Shown: piece after piece, positions 22,087-41,961 of the stretch
Layout: each line of letters opens with the position of its first letter
How positions within the stretch are numbered: position 1 is the stretch's first letter
The notes under the pieces: generated by a model
What the model saw: only the letters and a program-made list of their open reading frames with translations
What the model was told of the DNA's origin: nothing
Databases searched by the model: none
Translations under genes and position numbers: made by a program
Assembly: GCF_024502345.1 (NCBI RefSeq)
Contig: NZ_JALDNN010000001.1
Direction: 5' to 3' (one strand)
From: Escherichia coli
GTDB taxonomy: Bacteria > Pseudomonadota > Gammaproteobacteria > Enterobacterales > Enterobacteriaceae
DNA: 64,000 nt

Positions 22087-22323
22087 TTAACGCAGCGCCC
22101 ACCACTCGCGCAGACAGGCTTTTCCTTCCGGGCAGCTTTTACAACTGCCGGAGAGGCAGCCGTCAGGTTCTTCCTGAATCCGCACGGCTTTGCCCATACT
22201 TTCCAGTTGTTGCAGCATGGCGTTAATCATTGGCTGTGGAGTGTTCAATGTCTTGCTTATCTGGGCCGCTTCCATACGGCCCCGTAACGCCAACAAATCA
22301 CGCACCTGAATAAGTGAAGCCAT
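22087..22323 (-). CDS. feoC: ferrous iron transport protein C (Fe-S dependent transcriptional regulator-like)
   Basis: 78 aa from [13 protein letters not shown]; start ATG overlaps the feoB stop. Confidence 0.88.
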
Positions 22324-24644
22324 TAATGGCAATCACCGGTGGTGCTGGCTGCGCAGCAACTACTTACCGACTTGCGGGTTGCCAGCAGTTCGATATCCAC
22401 CCGGCTACGCGCGCGGCGCAGCAGACCGATAACCACGATGTTAAACAGGATAACCGCCAGAATGCACACCAGGCTGTAAGTTGGGTGCTGACTGTAGCTG
22501 GCGACCTGATAGAACAATGTTGCCAGTGAGTAAGCGATATTCAGCCCCCACAGGATGGAGAAGCCCATCCAGCCACGGCTTGATTCACGGGCGATGGCTC
22601 CCATCACCGAGATGCACGGTACATACAGCAGGACGAAAATCAGGTAGCTGTATGCGGCAGCTGCGCTACCGAATTTCTGATCCATCACGCCCATCGCCCC
22701 GGTACCCATTTCGCCGTCGCCTTTGCTAGCTTCAATGGGGTTCATCAGTACGCTAAGGCTGAAGGTGTCTTTCAGGCTCTGCCAGGTTTCATCTACCGCG
22801 CTGAACAACTCTTCACCGAGGTTAAATTCCGCCGGATTGAACTCTTCGTCCTGAATATTTTCTGCGGTGTAGAGGGTGTTGAGCGTACCCACCACCACTT
22901 CTTTCGCCATTGCACCCGTAAACAGGCCAACTGTTGCCTGCCAGTTATCTTCATGCACGCCAATCGGCTTGAAGACCGGGGTGATCACCCGGCTGACGGA
23001 AGCCAGCGCCGAGTCGTTGATGTTATCGACGATTTTCCCGCTCAACGAGAAGCTGTTGAAAGCGCTCAGGAAAATGCTGACGATGATAATCACTTTACCA
23101 GCACGCAGAACGAAGCCTTTCAGACGCTGCCAGGTCTGGATAATCAGGCTTTTAACGTGTGGTACATGGTAGACCGGCAGCTCCATGACAAACGGCGTCG
23201 CTTCACCGCGCATGATGGTGTACTTGAGCATCAGGCCAGTCAGCACCGCCATCACGATACCCAGCATATACAGCGAGAAGACCGCCAGCGCACCGTTCTG
23301 CCCGAAGAAGGCAGCCGCGAATACTGCGAAGATAGCCAGACGCGCGCCGCAGGACATAAACGGTGCCATCATGATGGTCATCAGACGTTCACGCGGTGCA
23401 TCAAGCGTACGTGCACCCATTACCGACGGTACGTTACAACCGAAACCGACGATCAGCGGCACAAAGGATTTCCCCGGCAAGCCCAGCGCCTGCATCAGGC
23501 GGTCCATCACAAACGCTGCACGCGCCATATAGCCGGAGTCCTCAAGGAAGGAGAGGAACAGGTACATCATGCCGATCTGCGGCACCAGTGGCAGCACGGT
23601 GTTAATACCGCCACCCAGGCCCTGGGCGAGGAAGATAGTCAGCCAGTCCGGGAAGTGGAGCGTGTAGCCAATCCATTGAATACCATGCACAAATAGCGCC
23701 ACGGAGCCGACGTCAAACAGCGGCTGTAACGCCCCGCCGATGTTGATAGCCAGCAGGAACATCAGGTACATCACAAAGAGGAAAATCGGCAGACCGAGGA
23801 AACGGTTGAGCACGATTTTATCTACCGCAGTGGTGAAACGGCTGGGTTCTGCCGTCAGGGTGTTGCTTACCACATCACAGATGGCCGCAATGCACTGGTA
23901 ACGCGCATCGGCAATGTGCAGCGCCGGATCGTCCATCTCATTACGCAGACGGGCGAGGGCGGCATCAAGATGCTGCGACGCTTCACCGGCGTAGGCGCGG
24001 CTGTAGATATCGCCTTCCAGCATTTGCAGGCCCAGCCAGCGACGTTGTTTCAGCGGGATGTCGGAAGGCATCACTTTTGCCAGTGAATCTGCTTCGTTGA
24101 GCAGCGGCTGTGCGTAATGCACCAGTTCCACATTCTCGTTAGCTTTATAGCGATCAATCGCCAGCTTGAGCGCTTCAATACCGCGACCACGGGTTGAAAC
24201 CAGCGGGATCACCGGACAGCCAAGACGCGCCGACAGAGCATCAATTTCAATACGAATATTTTGCTTCTCGGCAATGTCGAGCATGTTCAGTGCCACGATG
24301 CAGGGAATGCCGAGTTCCAGCAGTTGTAGCGTCAGGTACAGGTTACGCTCAAGGTTAGACGCATCCACCACGTTAATCAGCAGGTCGGCGTCGCCACTCA
24401 AAATGTAGTGACAGGCGATTTGCTCATCGAGCGAGGTCTGCGATGAGATGGTGGTCAGAGAATAGGTGCCGGGCAGGTCCACCAGCGTGACCTGATGATC
24501 GGTGGTGGAGAATTGCCCTTCTTTACGTTCGACGGTAACGCCAGCCCAGTTACCTACACGCTGACGTGCGCCAGTGAGCTGGTTAAATAAGGTTGTCTTG
24601 CCAGAATTTGGATTACCAATTAAGCCAATGGTTAATTTTTTCAT
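22323..24644 (-). CDS. feoB: ferrous iron transporter B (GTPase plus membrane permease)
   Basis: 773 aa from [18 protein letters not shown] (G1 motif). Confidence 0.95.
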
Positions 24645-24660
24645 TGTTGTTATCACCGTA

Positions 24661-24888
24661 TTAACAGGAAACCGCTTCCACTTCTAATAAGGCCAGATCT
24701 TTTTTGCGTAATACCAGGCTCACACGACGGGTTTCGATATGAATGGGGTCGCCGAGTGGAGCGACGCGCACCACATTAAAAGAGGAGCCAGGTAACATGC
24801 CTAGAGAAAGCAGTTTTTGGCGATATGCCGGGCTGATTTCACGGGAAAAGCCAGTGATTTTCCACGCAGTATCTGGAGTGTATTGCAT
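24661..24888 (-). CDS. feoA: ferrous iron transport protein A
   Basis: 75 aa; immediately upstream of feoB. Confidence 0.9.
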
Positions 24889-24999
24889 AGGTGCCTACTT
24901 GTTTCTCATTAACTGGATAACTACCTCATGGGGCGTTTGACAGCGACATGAGACCAGATGATTTGCCAACGAAGGAGAGATTAAATAATCAACAGTACA

Positions 25000-25018
25000 A
25001 TGATAATGAGAATGGTTT
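25000..25018. promoter_or_regulatory. Fur-box-like sequence (TGATAATGAGAATGGTTTC) upstream of feoA
   Basis: about 13 of 19 matches to GATAATGATAATCATTATC by eye. Confidence 0.4.
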
Positions 25019-25077
25019 CTATCAGCAATACTTAAAATGTGTGCGAATGTTGGTTTGAATAATAATCTGACTCAATG

Positions 25078-25091
25078 TTGATGTGGCTCAA
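25078..25091. promoter_or_regulatory. FNR-like half-palindrome TTGAT-N4-CTCAA upstream of feoA
   Basis: 9 of 10 matches to TTGAT-N4-ATCAA. Confidence 0.35.
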
Positions 25092-25225
25092 GGTTATATC
25101 GCAGCGAAAATATAATTCGAATAGAGAATTACCAGGACTGGCTAATGTTTAATTAAGGTTTCAGTTGTTAATGAAGTGATAAATATTAACGAAATATATT
25201 GTGAGTTTGGCTGTGGAATAAATAT

Positions 25226-25297
25226 GCCGGAGATATTCTCCGGCACTTTTATGTCAGGCAAGGCGTTCGTTGCCAGATGCGGCGTGAACGCCTTATC
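25226..25297. repeat. hairpin (GCCGGAGATATTCTCCGGC) plus REP-like element (GCCAGATGCGGCGTGAACGCCTTATC) downstream of tex/yhgF
   Basis: inverted repeats read directly; the second resembles the enterobacterial REP consensus. Confidence 0.4.
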
Positions 25298-25325
25298 GCG
25301 CAGGTTTAGGGGCCAGTCCGGGCGT

Positions 25326-27647
25326 TTAACGTTTTTTGCCCATTGCTGCCGCCAGCGCGTCCATCATCGCGCTGTTACCGGCAGGCTGCGCTTCACGACC
25401 GCGTGGTTTGGCTGCCGGGCGGTTGTTTTGCGGGCGATCGTTACCGCCGCCGCGACGAGAGTTGGTTTCGCCAGGCTGCTCGTCCAGACGCATGGTCAGG
25501 GCGATACGTTTACGCTGAAGATCCACTTCCAGCACTTTCACCTTCACAATGTCGCCCGCTTTCACCACGGTATGCGGATCTTCTACAAACTTGTTCGACA
25601 ATGAAGAGATGTGAACCAGGCCGTCCTGATGCACGCCGATATCGACAAACGCGCCAAAGTTGGTGACGTTGGTCACCGCACCTTCGAGGATCATACCCGG
25701 TTGCAGGTCGTTCATTGTCTCGACGCCATCGGCAAACTGAGCGGTTTTAAATTCCGGACGCGGATCGCGACCCGGTTTTTCCAGCTCTTTGATGATGTCA
25801 GTTACTGTCGGCACACCGAATTTTTCATCAGTAAAGTCAGACGCTTTCAGGTTACGCAGTTCGCTGCTGTTACCCATCAGATCTTTCAGTGCCTGCTGTG
25901 TTGCTGCCAGAATGCGTTCCACCACCGGATAGGCTTCCGGGTGGACGGTAGACGCGTCCAGCGGGTTATCACCGTGGTTAATGCGCAGGAAGCCCGCGCA
26001 CTGCTCGAAGGCTTTCGGCCCCAGACGGCTGACTTTCAGCAGTTGCTGACGGTTCTTGAACTGGCCGTTCTCATCGCGCCAGGCCACGATGTTTTGCGCC
26101 ATCATGCGCGTCAGGCCCGCCACGCGGGTTAATAGCGGAACAGAAGCGGTGTTGAGATCGACGCCAACGGCGTTTACGCAGTCTTCTACTACTGCATCCA
26201 GTTTGCGGGCCAGTTGCGTCTGGCTGACGTCATGCTGATACTGACCTACGCCGATAGATTTCGGATCGATTTTCACCAGCTCCGCCAGCGGATCCTGCAA
26301 ACGGCGGGCGATAGATACCGCACCACGCAGCGAAACGTCGAGATCCGGGAACTCCTGCGCTGCCAGCTCGGAAGCTGAGTAAACCGACGCGCCAGCTTCG
26401 CTGACGATCACTTTCTGTGCGGTCACTTTCGGGAACTGCTTCTGCACGTCGAGATAGAAACGTTCAGTTTCGCGGGAAGCTGTACCGTTGCCGATCGCCA
26501 CCAGTTCAACGTTATGTTTTTCACACAAGGCAGCAACGGTCATCGCTGCTTTTGCGGCTTGTCCGGTGTGCGGGTAAATGGTATCGGTCGCCACCAGTTT
26601 GCCAGTGGCATCGACCACCGCCACTTTTACCCCGGTACGCAGACCCGGATCGAGGCCCATCGTTGCACGCAGTCCGGCAGGGGCCGCCATCAGCAGATCG
26701 TGCAGGTTACGGGCAAAGACGTTGATTGCTTCATCTTCCGCGCGTTCGCGCACGGTACCCATCAGTTCGGTTTCCAGATGCATCAGCACCTTGATGCGCC
26801 AGGTCCAGCTCACTACGCCTTTGCGCCAGCTATCCGCCGGGGCATTGTTCAGGCGCAGGCCAAGGTGATCCATGATGATTTGCTCGCAATAGCTCTCTTT
26901 GGGCGGCTCATCGAACTGCGGATCGGCATTCAGCGAAAGCTGGAGTACGCCTTCGTTACGCCCACGGAACATCGCCAGCGCGCGGTGAGAAGGCACCGTG
27001 GACAACGGTTCGTGATGATCGAAATAGTCGCGGAATTTCGCCCCTTCCTCTTCTTTACCGCTCACCACCGTAGAAACCAAATGCGCGTTCTTCCACAGAT
27101 AATCACGCACTTTCGCCAGCAGCGCGGCATCTTCGGCAAACCGTTCCATCAGGATATAGCGCGCGCCATCCAGCGCGGCTTTGGTATCTGCCACGCCTTT
27201 ATCGGCATCAACATATTGTGCAGCGGCGACTTCTGGCGTGTGTGACGGATCGCTCCACAGCAGGTCAGCCAACGGCTCAAGCCCTGCTTCAATGGCGATT
27301 TGCCCGCGGGTGCGGCGTTTAGGTTTGTAGGGCAGGTAGAGGTCTTCGAGTTCGGTTTTGCTTAGGGTGGCGTTGATGGCCTTCGCCAGATCATCGGTGA
27401 GTTTGCCTTGCTCGGAAATGGATTTGAGGATCGCCTGACGTCTCTCTTCCAGCTCGCGCAGATAGCTCAGACGCGTTTCCAGATTACGCAGCTGCGTGTC
27501 ATCCAGACCGCCGGTGATTTCCTTACGATAACGTGCGATAAACGGCACGGTATTCCCTTCGTCAAGCAGGCGAACGGCAGCGTCAACCTGTTCCGGGCGC
27601 GCCTGAATTTCACCCGCAATAATGCGGCAGAACGAATCATTCATCAT
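25326..27647 (-). CDS. yhgF: Tex-like transcription accessory protein (HhH and S1 RNA-binding domains)
   Basis: 773 aa; C-terminal S1 domain ([19 protein letters not shown]). Confidence 0.92.
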
Positions 27648-39384: not shown

Positions 39385-41961
39385 TCAGAACAATTCCTGT
39401 GCCTCGCCATTATCGATAATGGTCGTTCCCACCTCGTGCACCGCCTGTTGTGTCGGCTGCGTACCTTCGATGAAATACTCTTCGCGGCTGTTGCCACCAT
39501 TAGCTAACTGCCCGGTGCTGCGATCGATTTTCACCGTCACAATACCTGGCGGCGGCGTCAGCGGCTGCTCCGGCACACCTTCAAGAACGGCTTTCATATA
39601 AGCGTCCCATGCAGGCTGGGCGCTCTTGGCACCGCCTTCGTAACCTGATATCTGATCTTTAATCGCTCCGGAAGCCGTTGTATGACCGAGATTACGACGG
39701 TGATCATCAAAGCCAATCCAGACCGAGGTCACAACGCCCGGACCGTAACCCGAGAACCACGCATCTTTCGAACTGTTAGTGGTACCGGTTTTCCCGCCGA
39801 TATCGCGACGCTGCAAATCACGACCTGCACGCCAGCCGGTACCCTGCCAGCCTGGCTCACCAAAGATATTGGTGTTCAAAGCACTCTTAATCAGGAATGC
39901 CAGCGGAGTGTTGATGACGTGCGGTGCGTACTCCTGCGCGCCAGTCTTCGCCACTAACGCCTGATTTGCCTGCTCCAGCTGCGGCATTGGTACAGAAACA
40001 TTCTGCTGCTCGCGGGAGATAGCGACATCTTCAACATCGTTATTTTCCAGCACGTTCGATTTCTGCGTATCACCGTAAATCACTGGAATATCGCATTCCG
40101 GGCAGGCTACTTTCGGTTTCGCTTCGAAAATCACGCCGCCCTGATCGTTTTCAATTTTGCTGATAAACCACGGGTCCACCAGGAAGCCGCCGTTCGCCAT
40201 GACCGCGTAGCCGCGCGCCACCTGCATTGGGGTGAAGGACGCTGAACCCAGCGCCAGCGATTCGGTGTGGACAATGTTTTGCGCCGGGAAGCCGAAGCGT
40301 TGCAGATATTCTGCAGCGTAGTCGACGCCCATCGCTCGCATTGCGCGTACCATCACCACGTTTTTCGACTGACCCAGCCCCTGACGTAAGCGAATTGGAC
40401 CGGCATACTGCGGTGGTGAGTTTTTCGGCTGCCAGTCAGAACCGGCACCTGCGTCCCAGCGAGAAATTGGCACATCGTTCAACATACTTGCCAGCGTCAG
40501 ACCTTTATCCATCGCCGCGGTGTAGAGGAACGGTTTGATGTTGGAACCCACCTGACGCAGTGCCTGGGTGGCGCGGTTAAACTTGCTCTGATTGAAATCA
40601 AAGCCACCGACCAGCGCCATAACGGCACCATTTTGCGGATTGATCGACACCAGTGCCGAGTTCACTTCCGGCACTTGTGCCAGCCACCATGCATCGCCAA
40701 CCTGACGAACCCAGATTTGCTGGCCCGTTTGCAGAACATCGGTCACTTTACGCGGCGTCGGTCCCTGCTGAGTATCCGAACGGTAAGGACGCGCCCAGCG
40801 AACGCCTTCCATACTCAATGCGACGGTCGACCCGTCCGCCAGCATTGCCGTCGCTTCCTGAGGATTGGCGCTGGTGACTGCGGCAGGCAGCAGCGGACCA
40901 TAGGTCGGCAGCGCCTTCAGCGTATCGGTAATCTTGTTGTTATCCCACGCCGACTCGCCCACTTTCCACAGCACATTTGCCGGGCCGCGATAGCCGTGGC
41001 GCATGTCGTAGTCCAGCACGTTATTACGTACCGCCTGCTGTGCGGCCTGCTGCACTTTGCGGGTGATGGTGGTGTAAATGCGATAACCGTCTTCATAGGC
41101 ACTTTCGCCATAACGGTTATACATCTCCTGGCGCACCATTTCGCTCAGGTACGGCGCAGAAAAAGCAATCTCCGGCGCGTGATAGTTAGCGTTAATCGCC
41201 TCAGTGCGTGTCTGATCGAACTGTTGTTGGGTGATATACCCTTCATCCAGCATCCGCGACAGTACGACGTTACGCCGCGCGACGGCACGATCCATTGAGT
41301 AGAGCGGATTAAAGGTGGAAGGCGCTTTCGGCAGCCCGGCGATCACAGCCATTTCGTTCAGCGTCAGTTGGTCGACCGTTTTACCGAAATAGACTTGTGC
41401 CGCAGCACCGACACCATAGGCGCGGTAACCAAGGTAAATCTTGTTCAGATAAAGCTCGAGGATCTCGTCTTTCGTCAGCAACTGTTCAATGCGAATCGCG
41501 AGGAAGACTTCCTTAATCTTACGCATCAGCGTGCGTTCTGGACTGAGGAAGAAATTTCTCGCCAGCTGCTGGGTAATGGTACTCGCCCCTTGTGACGCGT
41601 GGCCGGAGAACAGCGCCACACTTGCCGCACGGAAGATCCCCACCGGGTCAACGCCGTGATGCTCGTAGAAGCGGCTGTCTTCCGTCGCGATAAAGGCTTT
41701 CACCATCTCTGGCGGGATTTGATCCAGCGTAACCGGAATACGACGTTTCTCACCGTATTGAGCAATCAGCTCGCCATCGGCGCTGTAAATCTGCATCGGA
41801 ATTTGCAGGCGAACATCTTTTAATGTCGCCACATCCGGCAGTTGTGGCTCGATGTAGCGGTATAGGCCATAAATCGAGCCTGCTCCCAGCAGAATGCAAC
41901 AGACTGCAAGGATCAAAAAATACTTTACGAACTTCACTGGAAATTTCCCATTTAGTTTCAT
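39385..41961 (-). CDS. mrcA: penicillin-binding protein 1A (bifunctional glycosyltransferase/transpeptidase)
   Basis: transglycosylase motif EDSRFYEHHG, transpeptidase SxxK region; annotated K-12 start probably 8 codons downstream (GTG at 41937, 850 aa). Confidence 0.94.
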   Translation of the reverse strand: MKLNGKFPVKFVKYFLILAVCCILLGAGSIYGLYRYIEPQLPDVATLKDVRLQIPMQIYSADGELIAQYGEKRRIPVTLDQIPPEMVKAFIATEDSRFYEHHGVDPVGIFRAASVALFSGHASQGASTITQQLARNFFLSPERTLMRKIKEVFLAIRIEQLLTKDEILELYLNKIYLGYRAYGVGAAAQVYFGKTVDQLTLNEMAVIAGLPKAPSTFNPLYSMDRAVARRNVVLSRMLDEGYITQQQFDQTRTEAINANYHAPEIAFSAPYLSEMVRQEMYNRYGESAYEDGYRIYTTITRKVQQAAQQAVRNNVLDYDMRHGYRGPANVLWKVGESAWDNNKITDTLKALPTYGPLLPAAVTSANPQEATAMLADGSTVALSMEGVRWARPYRSDTQQGPTPRKVTDVLQTGQQIWVRQVGDAWWLAQVPEVNSALVSINPQNGAVMALVGGFDFNQSKFNRATQALRQVGSNIKPFLYTAAMDKGLTLASMLNDVPISRWDAGAGSDWQPKNSPPQYAGPIRLRQGLGQSKNVVMVRAMRAMGVDYAAEYLQRFGFPAQNIVHTESLALGSASFTPMQVARGYAVMANGGFLVDPWFISKIENDQGGVIFEAKPKVACPECDIPVIYGDTQKSNVLENNDVEDVAISREQQNVSVPMPQLEQANQALVAKTGAQEYAPHVINTPLAFLIKSALNTNIFGEPGWQGTGWRAGRDLQRRDIGGKTGTTNSSKDAWFSGYGPGVVTSVWIGFDDHRRNLGHTTASGAIKDQISGYEGGAKSAQPAWDAYMKAVLEGVPEQPLTPPPGIVTVKIDRSTGQLANGGNSREEYFIEGTQPTQQAVHEVGTTIIDNGEAQELF

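Follow-up and report, generated by a model that had tools for sequence, protein, structure and literature searches.

Positions of the feoABC control sites between tex and feoA in an O157-like allele of Escherichia coli

The window analysed here is a stretch of 64,000 nucleotides (64 kb) from Escherichia coli (RefSeq assembly GCF_024502345.1, contig NZ_JALDNN010000001.1), in which tex (yhgF) and feoA are both encoded on the minus strand and are separated by an intergenic segment of 437 bp (24889-25325; 40% G+C). The tex coding sequence occupies 25326-27647 with its stop codon at 25326-25328, and is annotated as the Tex family protein yhgF in the 99.8%-identical O157:H7 RefSeq record. The coding sequences of feoA (24661-24888, with the ATG at 24888) and feoB (22323-24656), likewise on the minus strand, were taken from the open reading frame list and the annotation, and the gene order around the locus is ompR-envZ, greB, yhgF, feoABC, rpnA and bioH. 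The 437-bp segment was matched in 5425 of 5426 complete E. coli genomes, with an O157:H7 chromosome as top match (99.8%). Its identity to K-12 is 97.3%; the K-12 allele carries 19 extra bases directly past the tex stop, and between the REP element described below and the feoA ATG the two alleles differ by ~12 single-base substitutions without indels. Because the alignment is gapless from the REP element to the ATG, K-12 positions (x, U00096.2) can be converted into window positions (w) by w = 25185 - (x - 3537888). The feoA ATG lies at x = 3538185 in U00096.2, and the feoA start is 3540163 in NC_000913.3. The segment is the already-described feoABC control region, in which Fur, FNR and ArcA signals converge on one promoter.

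The initial annotation, made by eye, had placed an imperfect Fur box (25000-25018), a TTGAT-N4-CTCAA element resembling an FNR site (25078-25091), a perfect hairpin (25226-25244) and a REP-like unit (25272-25297) in this segment, and all four features were found at these positions. Measured from the ATG at 24888, the first two are indeed located 110-200 nt upstream of feoA, and the order in which the hairpin and the REP element separate them from the tex stop was confirmed. The annotation by eye had overlooked the promoter with its hexamers and start site, a second Fur cluster (~25067) and the ArcA site (25165-25185).

For a comparison across genera, 80 Enterobacteriaceae loci from ~25 genera were retrieved by FeoA, including Escherichia, Salmonella, Citrobacter, Klebsiella, Raoultella, Kluyvera, Enterobacter, Kosakonia, Cedecea and others, with tex upstream in almost every case. 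Intergenic conservation peaks over the near-invariant ATTGaTGATAaAAACCATTCTCATTATCATT (25029-24999), which extends from the -35 to the -10 region and matches the Fur footprint in position, and it drops sharply just past this block.

The feature closest to tex is a REP element (25260-25300, core 25272-25297), which was identified by its core and its palindrome and lies 29 nt past the tex stop, between the stop and the hairpin. The core GATGCGGCGTGAACGCCTTATC at 25276-25297 matched the consensus GATGCGGCGYRAACGCCTTATC exactly, where 0 matches are expected by chance, and the arms at 25260-25268 and 25286-25294 form a perfect 9-bp stem in an extragenic position between the tex stop and feoA. Dispersal of the element was evident from a 43-nt query, which was run against 5425 E. 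coli genomes at a stringent E-value and hit a median of 6 places in each, with a maximum of 16. What had been called REP-like is thus a genuine REP element. It has in common with REP elements in general the consensus core, the imperfect palindrome, the extragenic position after a stop codon and the many copies per genome, and differs from the typical case in being a single unit that does not form a BIME pair and in having a tail truncated relative to the K-12 allele. The adjoining stretch 25298-25325 is polymorphic: the 19 extra bases of K-12-type alleles form a CCTACG...CGTAGG palindrome flanking the REP element, which is missing from the O157-type window allele. Rfam yielded only sub-threshold matches for the REP element and the hairpin, among them the REP-derived naRNA4.

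The hairpin GCCGGAG-ATATT-CTCCGGC at 25226-25244 has perfect arms of seven bases and extends to 9-10 pairs over 25224-25246. A terminator scan picked it up as terminator-like in either orientation; on the minus strand (25216-25246) it is a stem-loop from 25246 to 25224 with 10 pairs, six of them G-C, and a 3-nt loop, followed by the tail ATTTATTC (5 T in 8 nt) 80 nt past the tex stop. It therefore has the form of an intrinsic terminator, a G+C-rich stem-loop with a T-run in the same orientation downstream of a gene, and the 131-nt RNA fold gave z = -4.4. The T-tail is interrupted in the window allele (ATTTATT); in K-12 the tail reads TTTTTATT and is accompanied by an upstream A-run, giving the shape of a classic bidirectional terminator. 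Applying a crude filter, a hairpin with a T-run was found in 26 of 76 other loci, nearly all of these being canonical, non-homologous terminators that start 1-16 nt past the tex stop, which favours a role in termination for the E. coli hairpin. The supplements of Adams 2021, in files that are possibly incomplete, contained no coordinate for a tex 3' end matching the hairpin. The hairpin is most likely the tex terminator.

On the feoA side, a putative sigma-70 promoter was recognized with the -35 hexamer TTGCTG (25023-25028, minus strand; family consensus TTGATG), near-invariant in 79 loci, and the -10 hexamer TATCAT (25000-25005, minus strand) at a spacing of 17 bp. The -10 assignment is based on the position relative to the start implied by Park 2013 and on the drop in conservation just downstream. 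The transcription start site at 24993-24994 (minus strand, with an uncertainty of ~1 nt) was derived from Table S6 of Park 2013: back-calculation from the ArcA coordinates given there, which refer to starts from EcoCyc or Kim 2012, places the start at 3538079 and therefore at window position 24994, fitting TTGCTG-17-TATCAT. An entry for feoA was absent from the start-site supplements of Kim 2012. A simple consensus scan returned no sigma-70 promoter in the region, as expected for a promoter that depends on activators. For the yhgF-feoA spacer, Shimada 2014 predicted TTATCA-15-TTTAAT, ~22 bp downstream, and flagged H-NS binding; this 'constitutive' promoter (24978-25004) overlaps the -10 hexamer assigned here.

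The Fur box at 25000-25018 (plus strand, ATGATAATGAGAATGGTTT) proved to be one register of an overlapping array at 24993-25026 that covers the putative -35 and -10 hexamers and the start site, the core-promoter overlap typical of Fur operators at iron-uptake genes. Judged by the 19-bp consensus the array is mediocre. The best frames, 24996-25014 and 25002-25020 (13/19 each) and 25008-25026 (12/19), lie in registers 6 bp apart, and sites with at least 13/19 occurred 17 times in the window against ~6 expected; the chance of at least one such match in a comparable region is 18%, so that by the 19-bp score on its own the match does not exceed chance expectation. Under the model of three contiguous GATAAT-like hexamers, the minimum for a Fur operator, 24996-25013 matched at 15/18 positions and was joint best in the 64 kb, where 0.17 such matches are expected (P ~0.007 for a 437-bp region of the same composition). 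The only other 15/18 match in the window, at 39409-39426 (ATTATCGATAATGGTCGT), falls in the 3'-terminal part of the mrcA coding sequence and was discarded as probably due to chance.

These positions agree with published data for K-12. The Fur ChIP-exo footprint at 3538047-3538080, observed in iron-replete cells only (Gao 2023 supplement), converts to 25026-24993 and covers the box marked by eye; within it the window and K-12 are identical save for two edge bases. The information-theory sites of Chen 2007, with 13.4 bits at 3538065 and 10.9 bits at 3538059, fall at window positions 25008 and 25014, and their registers are offset from ours because the 19-bp model used there is centred 3 bp off the classical consensus frames. 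Relative to the deduced start the footprint spans -32 to +1, an arrangement that would amount to classic promoter occlusion. Furthermore, a feoA-lacZ fusion was repressed by Fur under anaerobic conditions (Beauchene 2015). In the Fur pan-regulon tables of Gao 2023, feoA is classed as 'accessory', and three of the nine strains show zero fold-change for it; one of these, judging from the column order, appears to be O157:H7 Sakai.

A second Fur box cluster adjoins the FNR site at 25058-25076. It corresponds to the 10.5-bit site of Chen 2007 at 3538006 (window 25067), which, in the account given there, covers one of the two Fur boxes that Kammler 1993 had marked at feo. The cluster reached 11/19 in three registers 6 bp apart, is moderately conserved and is centred at ~-73 from the deduced start, outside the published ChIP-exo footprint.

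The FNR element at 25078-25091 reads TTGATGTGGCTCAA on the plus strand and TTGAGCCACATCAA in feoA sense, that is TTGAG-CCAC-ATCAA, which agrees with the TTGAT-N4-ATCAA dyad at 9 of 10 bases. Scored with a matrix built from 62 other ChIP-bound sites (Myers 2013, Table S6), it obtained 15.7-16.0 bits and was the top 14-mer of the 64-kb window, the runner-up reaching 12.3; 64 kb of random sequence would be expected to contain ~0.2 sites of this score, and with only 22 of the 62 training sites scoring higher the element stands near the middle of that set. Myers 2013 lists TTGAGCCACATCAA at 3537982 with 14.6 bits under the K-12 FNR ChIP-seq peak for feoA, which converts exactly to 25091-25078, and describes feoABC as FNR-activated with the effect masked by Fur in iron-replete medium.

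The initial annotation had called both regulatory sites weak matches, which is correct for the Fur box with respect to the 19-bp consensus (13/19) and incorrect for the FNR element, whose score is the best of the window. Its conjecture of iron- and anaerobiosis-responsive control of feoABC through Fur and FNR is supported, as the mapped K-12 sites for both regulators coincide with the positions picked by eye and do not lie elsewhere in the region.

The half-sites TTGAG and ATCAA were kept in nearly all 80 loci while the 4-nt spacer varied freely (CCAC, CCAT, GAAT, TCAT, CAAG, CTAT and others), a pattern typical of dimer binding sites. Taken as TTG-N8-CAA, the element has its centre 70-71 bp away from the promoter core (25004-25013) in 78 of the 81 sequences compared; in one locus (L062) the interval is 61 bp, shorter by one helical turn. 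The interval between core and ATG, on the other hand, ranges from 52 to 254 bp across the loci. The Cedecea loci (L071 and L081) have no FNR site at the usual place and carry perfect FNR sites ~240 bp further upstream. In the window the FNR centre lies at ~-90.5, counted from a second-hand start site. A class II arrangement was considered and rejected, since the stretch 29-30 bp downstream from the centre of the FNR site contains no -10-like hexamer and is poorly conserved.

Further upstream, the ArcA site TTGTTAATGAAgTGATAAATA (25165-25185, plus strand) consists of the direct repeats TGTTA at 25167 and TGATA at 25178, 11 bp apart, its occupancy being known from K-12. There, Park 2013 reported a 17.6-bit site at 3537888-3537908, -191 to -171 from the start, with ChIP peaks at 3537845 and 3537882; feoABC was 3.7-fold lower without ArcA and was counted among 11 directly activated operons. 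Between the repeats the window and K-12 differ by an A to G exchange. On the minus strand the same bases contain the OmpR candidate TTATCAcTTCATTAACA (25182-25166), as Gerken 2020 showed that OmpR shifts a fragment with TTATCAtttcaTTAACA at -294..-278 from the ATG. As the ArcA site and the OmpR candidate share bases, two regulators of the OmpR family may compete or cooperate here. Gerken 2020 also proposed a moderately conserved RstA/OmpR-like box, CCAACAttcgCACACA, at -165..-150 from the ATG (25038-25053, minus strand; ~-59 to -44), and a fragment with CCAACAttcgCACACA only gave no OmpR shift; a role of RstA at this box would be conceivable.

Occupancy by Fur, FNR and ArcA and the OmpR gel shift have thus been shown in published work on the near-identical K-12 sequence, and presumably apply to the window allele as well.

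Adjacent to the ArcA site, an alignment of 18 genera revealed an AT-rich block, GAAACCTTAATTAAACATTAG (25143-25163, minus strand), whose conservation across genera equals that of the ArcA site. The ArcA/OmpR motif and GAAACCTTAATTAAACATTAG are both conserved, and their distance to the FNR site varies. On the bottom strand the block contains TGTTT and GGTTT 11 bp apart and, going by this spacing, might be a second direct-repeat pair for a response regulator; our search found no regulator assigned to it.

The feoA leader of ~106 nt (24889-24992, minus strand, with the start at ~24994) was characterized by alignments and folds. It contains a nearly invariant Shine-Dalgarno sequence, AAGTAGG (24900-24894), and a GC-rich hairpin in its middle, TCTCATG...CATGAGG (24953-24924), which keeps its position while its sequence changes from genus to genus. 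It is flanked by two conserved boxes, CGTTGGC and CAGTTAGCGA; in the group of Enterobacter, Lelliottia and Leclercia ~70 nt of the leader are missing. On average the central segment folded better than dinucleotide shuffles (mean z -1.39; p <=0.05 in 17 of 57), and the whole leader showed no excess stability over shuffles (mean z ~0). RNAalifold predicted no consensus structure in the leader, and a box1-box2 helix, with pairing potential in 75% of cells, displayed no covariation beyond shuffles. The leader matched no Rfam family, and neither a family nor a paper describing such a feoA leader element was found. A post-transcriptional element in the leader is thus a weak lead, and we regard its existence as unlikely. 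Equal reserve applies to a second candidate, according to which the strictly phased FNR site at ~-90 and the 25143-25163 block would represent a conserved multi-activator architecture.

Taken together, the data are very probably best explained by control of feoABC at one promoter through Fur, FNR and ArcA/OmpR, with the operon insulated from tex. Transcription would begin near 24994 at a weak sigma-70 promoter, TTGCTG-17-TATCAT, which would depend on activators. When iron is plentiful, iron-loaded Fur would occupy the overlapping array at 24993-25026, spanning the -35, the -10 and the start, and thereby exclude RNA polymerase, and the second Fur cluster beside the FNR site may reinforce this repression. 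In the absence of oxygen, FNR would bind its near-consensus site ~90 bp upstream of the start in a fixed helical position, most likely acting as an upstream activator of class I type that contacts the alpha subunit of the polymerase. Phosphorylated ArcA on the direct repeat ~180 bp upstream would add to the activation, and OmpR, which binds a fragment with the same sequence, may act there as well. The tex transcript would run through the REP element and then most likely terminate at the GC-rich hairpin with its T-rich tail, insulating feoABC from read-through.

It is hardly credible that the Fur- and FNR-like matches are without regulatory function and merely reflect chance resemblance in AT-rich DNA between genes. 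A G+C content of 40% and the abundance of 13/19 Fur matches (17 against ~6 expected, and 18% for a region like this) would be compatible with such a view. It is contradicted by the FNR match being the best in 64 kb and by the P of ~0.007 for the hexamer array, and both sites coincide with published in vivo binding data and are conserved across genera with fixed spacing. Given that the sites are used, the geometry might still differ from the one proposed, with transcription starting elsewhere, for example near 24971 from TTATCA-15-TTTAAT or from a second promoter, and with FNR acting other than as a simple activator at -90. We consider this unlikely. The promoter listed by Shimada 2014, the failure of the consensus scan to return any promoter, the probable existence of two promoters at feoABC of Yersinia pestis and the conservation of the stretch TGTTGATTATTTAA even in genera with short leaders would fit such a geometry; the Shimada hexamers, however, were guessed from the sequence and have a spacer of 15 bp, whereas the start implied by Park 2013 fits TTGCTG-17-TATCAT, conservation peaks over the -35 to -10 block and falls directly after it, and the lack of a -10-like hexamer at the class II distance, 29-30 bp past the FNR centre, argues against that arrangement.

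An unlikely alternative concerns the tex side, where the hairpin at 25224-25246 might not terminate tex and, together with the REP element, might instead mainly stabilize the mRNA 3' end, bind a protein or be the remnant of a mobile element, so that feoABC would receive some read-through from tex. The interrupted T-tail of the window allele, the missing 3' end in the dataset searched (Adams 2021), the apparent lack of the left arm in E. albertii and the low number of other loci passing the crude terminator filter (26/76) could be understood in this way. Against it, a stem of 9-10 pairs including 6 G-C precedes a tail with 5 T in 8 nt, K-12 with TTTTTATT and the upstream A-run has the bidirectional terminator shape, genera without the REP element possess a canonical terminator in the same slot, 5-16 nt past the tex stop, and feoABC expression tracks Fur, FNR and ArcA acting at its own promoter. 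We retain termination of tex at the hairpin as the preferred reading.

Among known systems the closest is feoABC of K-12 itself, which shares the locus, the gene order, the FNR 14-mer, the Fur array, the upstream Fur cluster, the ArcA site and the REP-ATG spacing, and differs by the ~12 single-base exchanges, including the A to G in the ArcA spacer and, where the Fur footprint ends beside the start site, AC for GT at 24995-24996. The Salmonella feoA promoter (L009) has a homologous promoter/Fur block and FNR site, and a TACA-N6-CACA-like box is present upstream of the -35 in both species; RstA binding was shown in Salmonella only, according to the description of Jeon 2008 in Gerken 2020. Y. 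pestis feoABC resembles that of E. coli in having a Fur site over the promoter and putative FNR and ArcA motifs. It differs in that no promoter sequence similarity is detectable, two promoters are likely, Fur represses only microaerobically, and fnr and arcA mutations had no effect on feoABC. As in FNR/CRP promoters of class I type, the dimer site of feoA is located well upstream of the -35 and appears to keep a constant helical phase. FNR sites are commonly located at -41.5, and the distance of ~-90 at feoA is longer than in most natural FNR promoters.

The analysis assigns coordinates to the feoABC control sites of an O157-like allele. The control sites themselves represent established E. 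coli biology and matter little beyond annotation, and the location of real operator sites by eye was borne out at feoABC. As one modest addition, the distance between FNR site and promoter is held within 1 bp across the Enterobacteriaceae while the length of the leader varies five-fold, and this fixed spacing is consistent with a helical-face-dependent activation from an unusually distant site.
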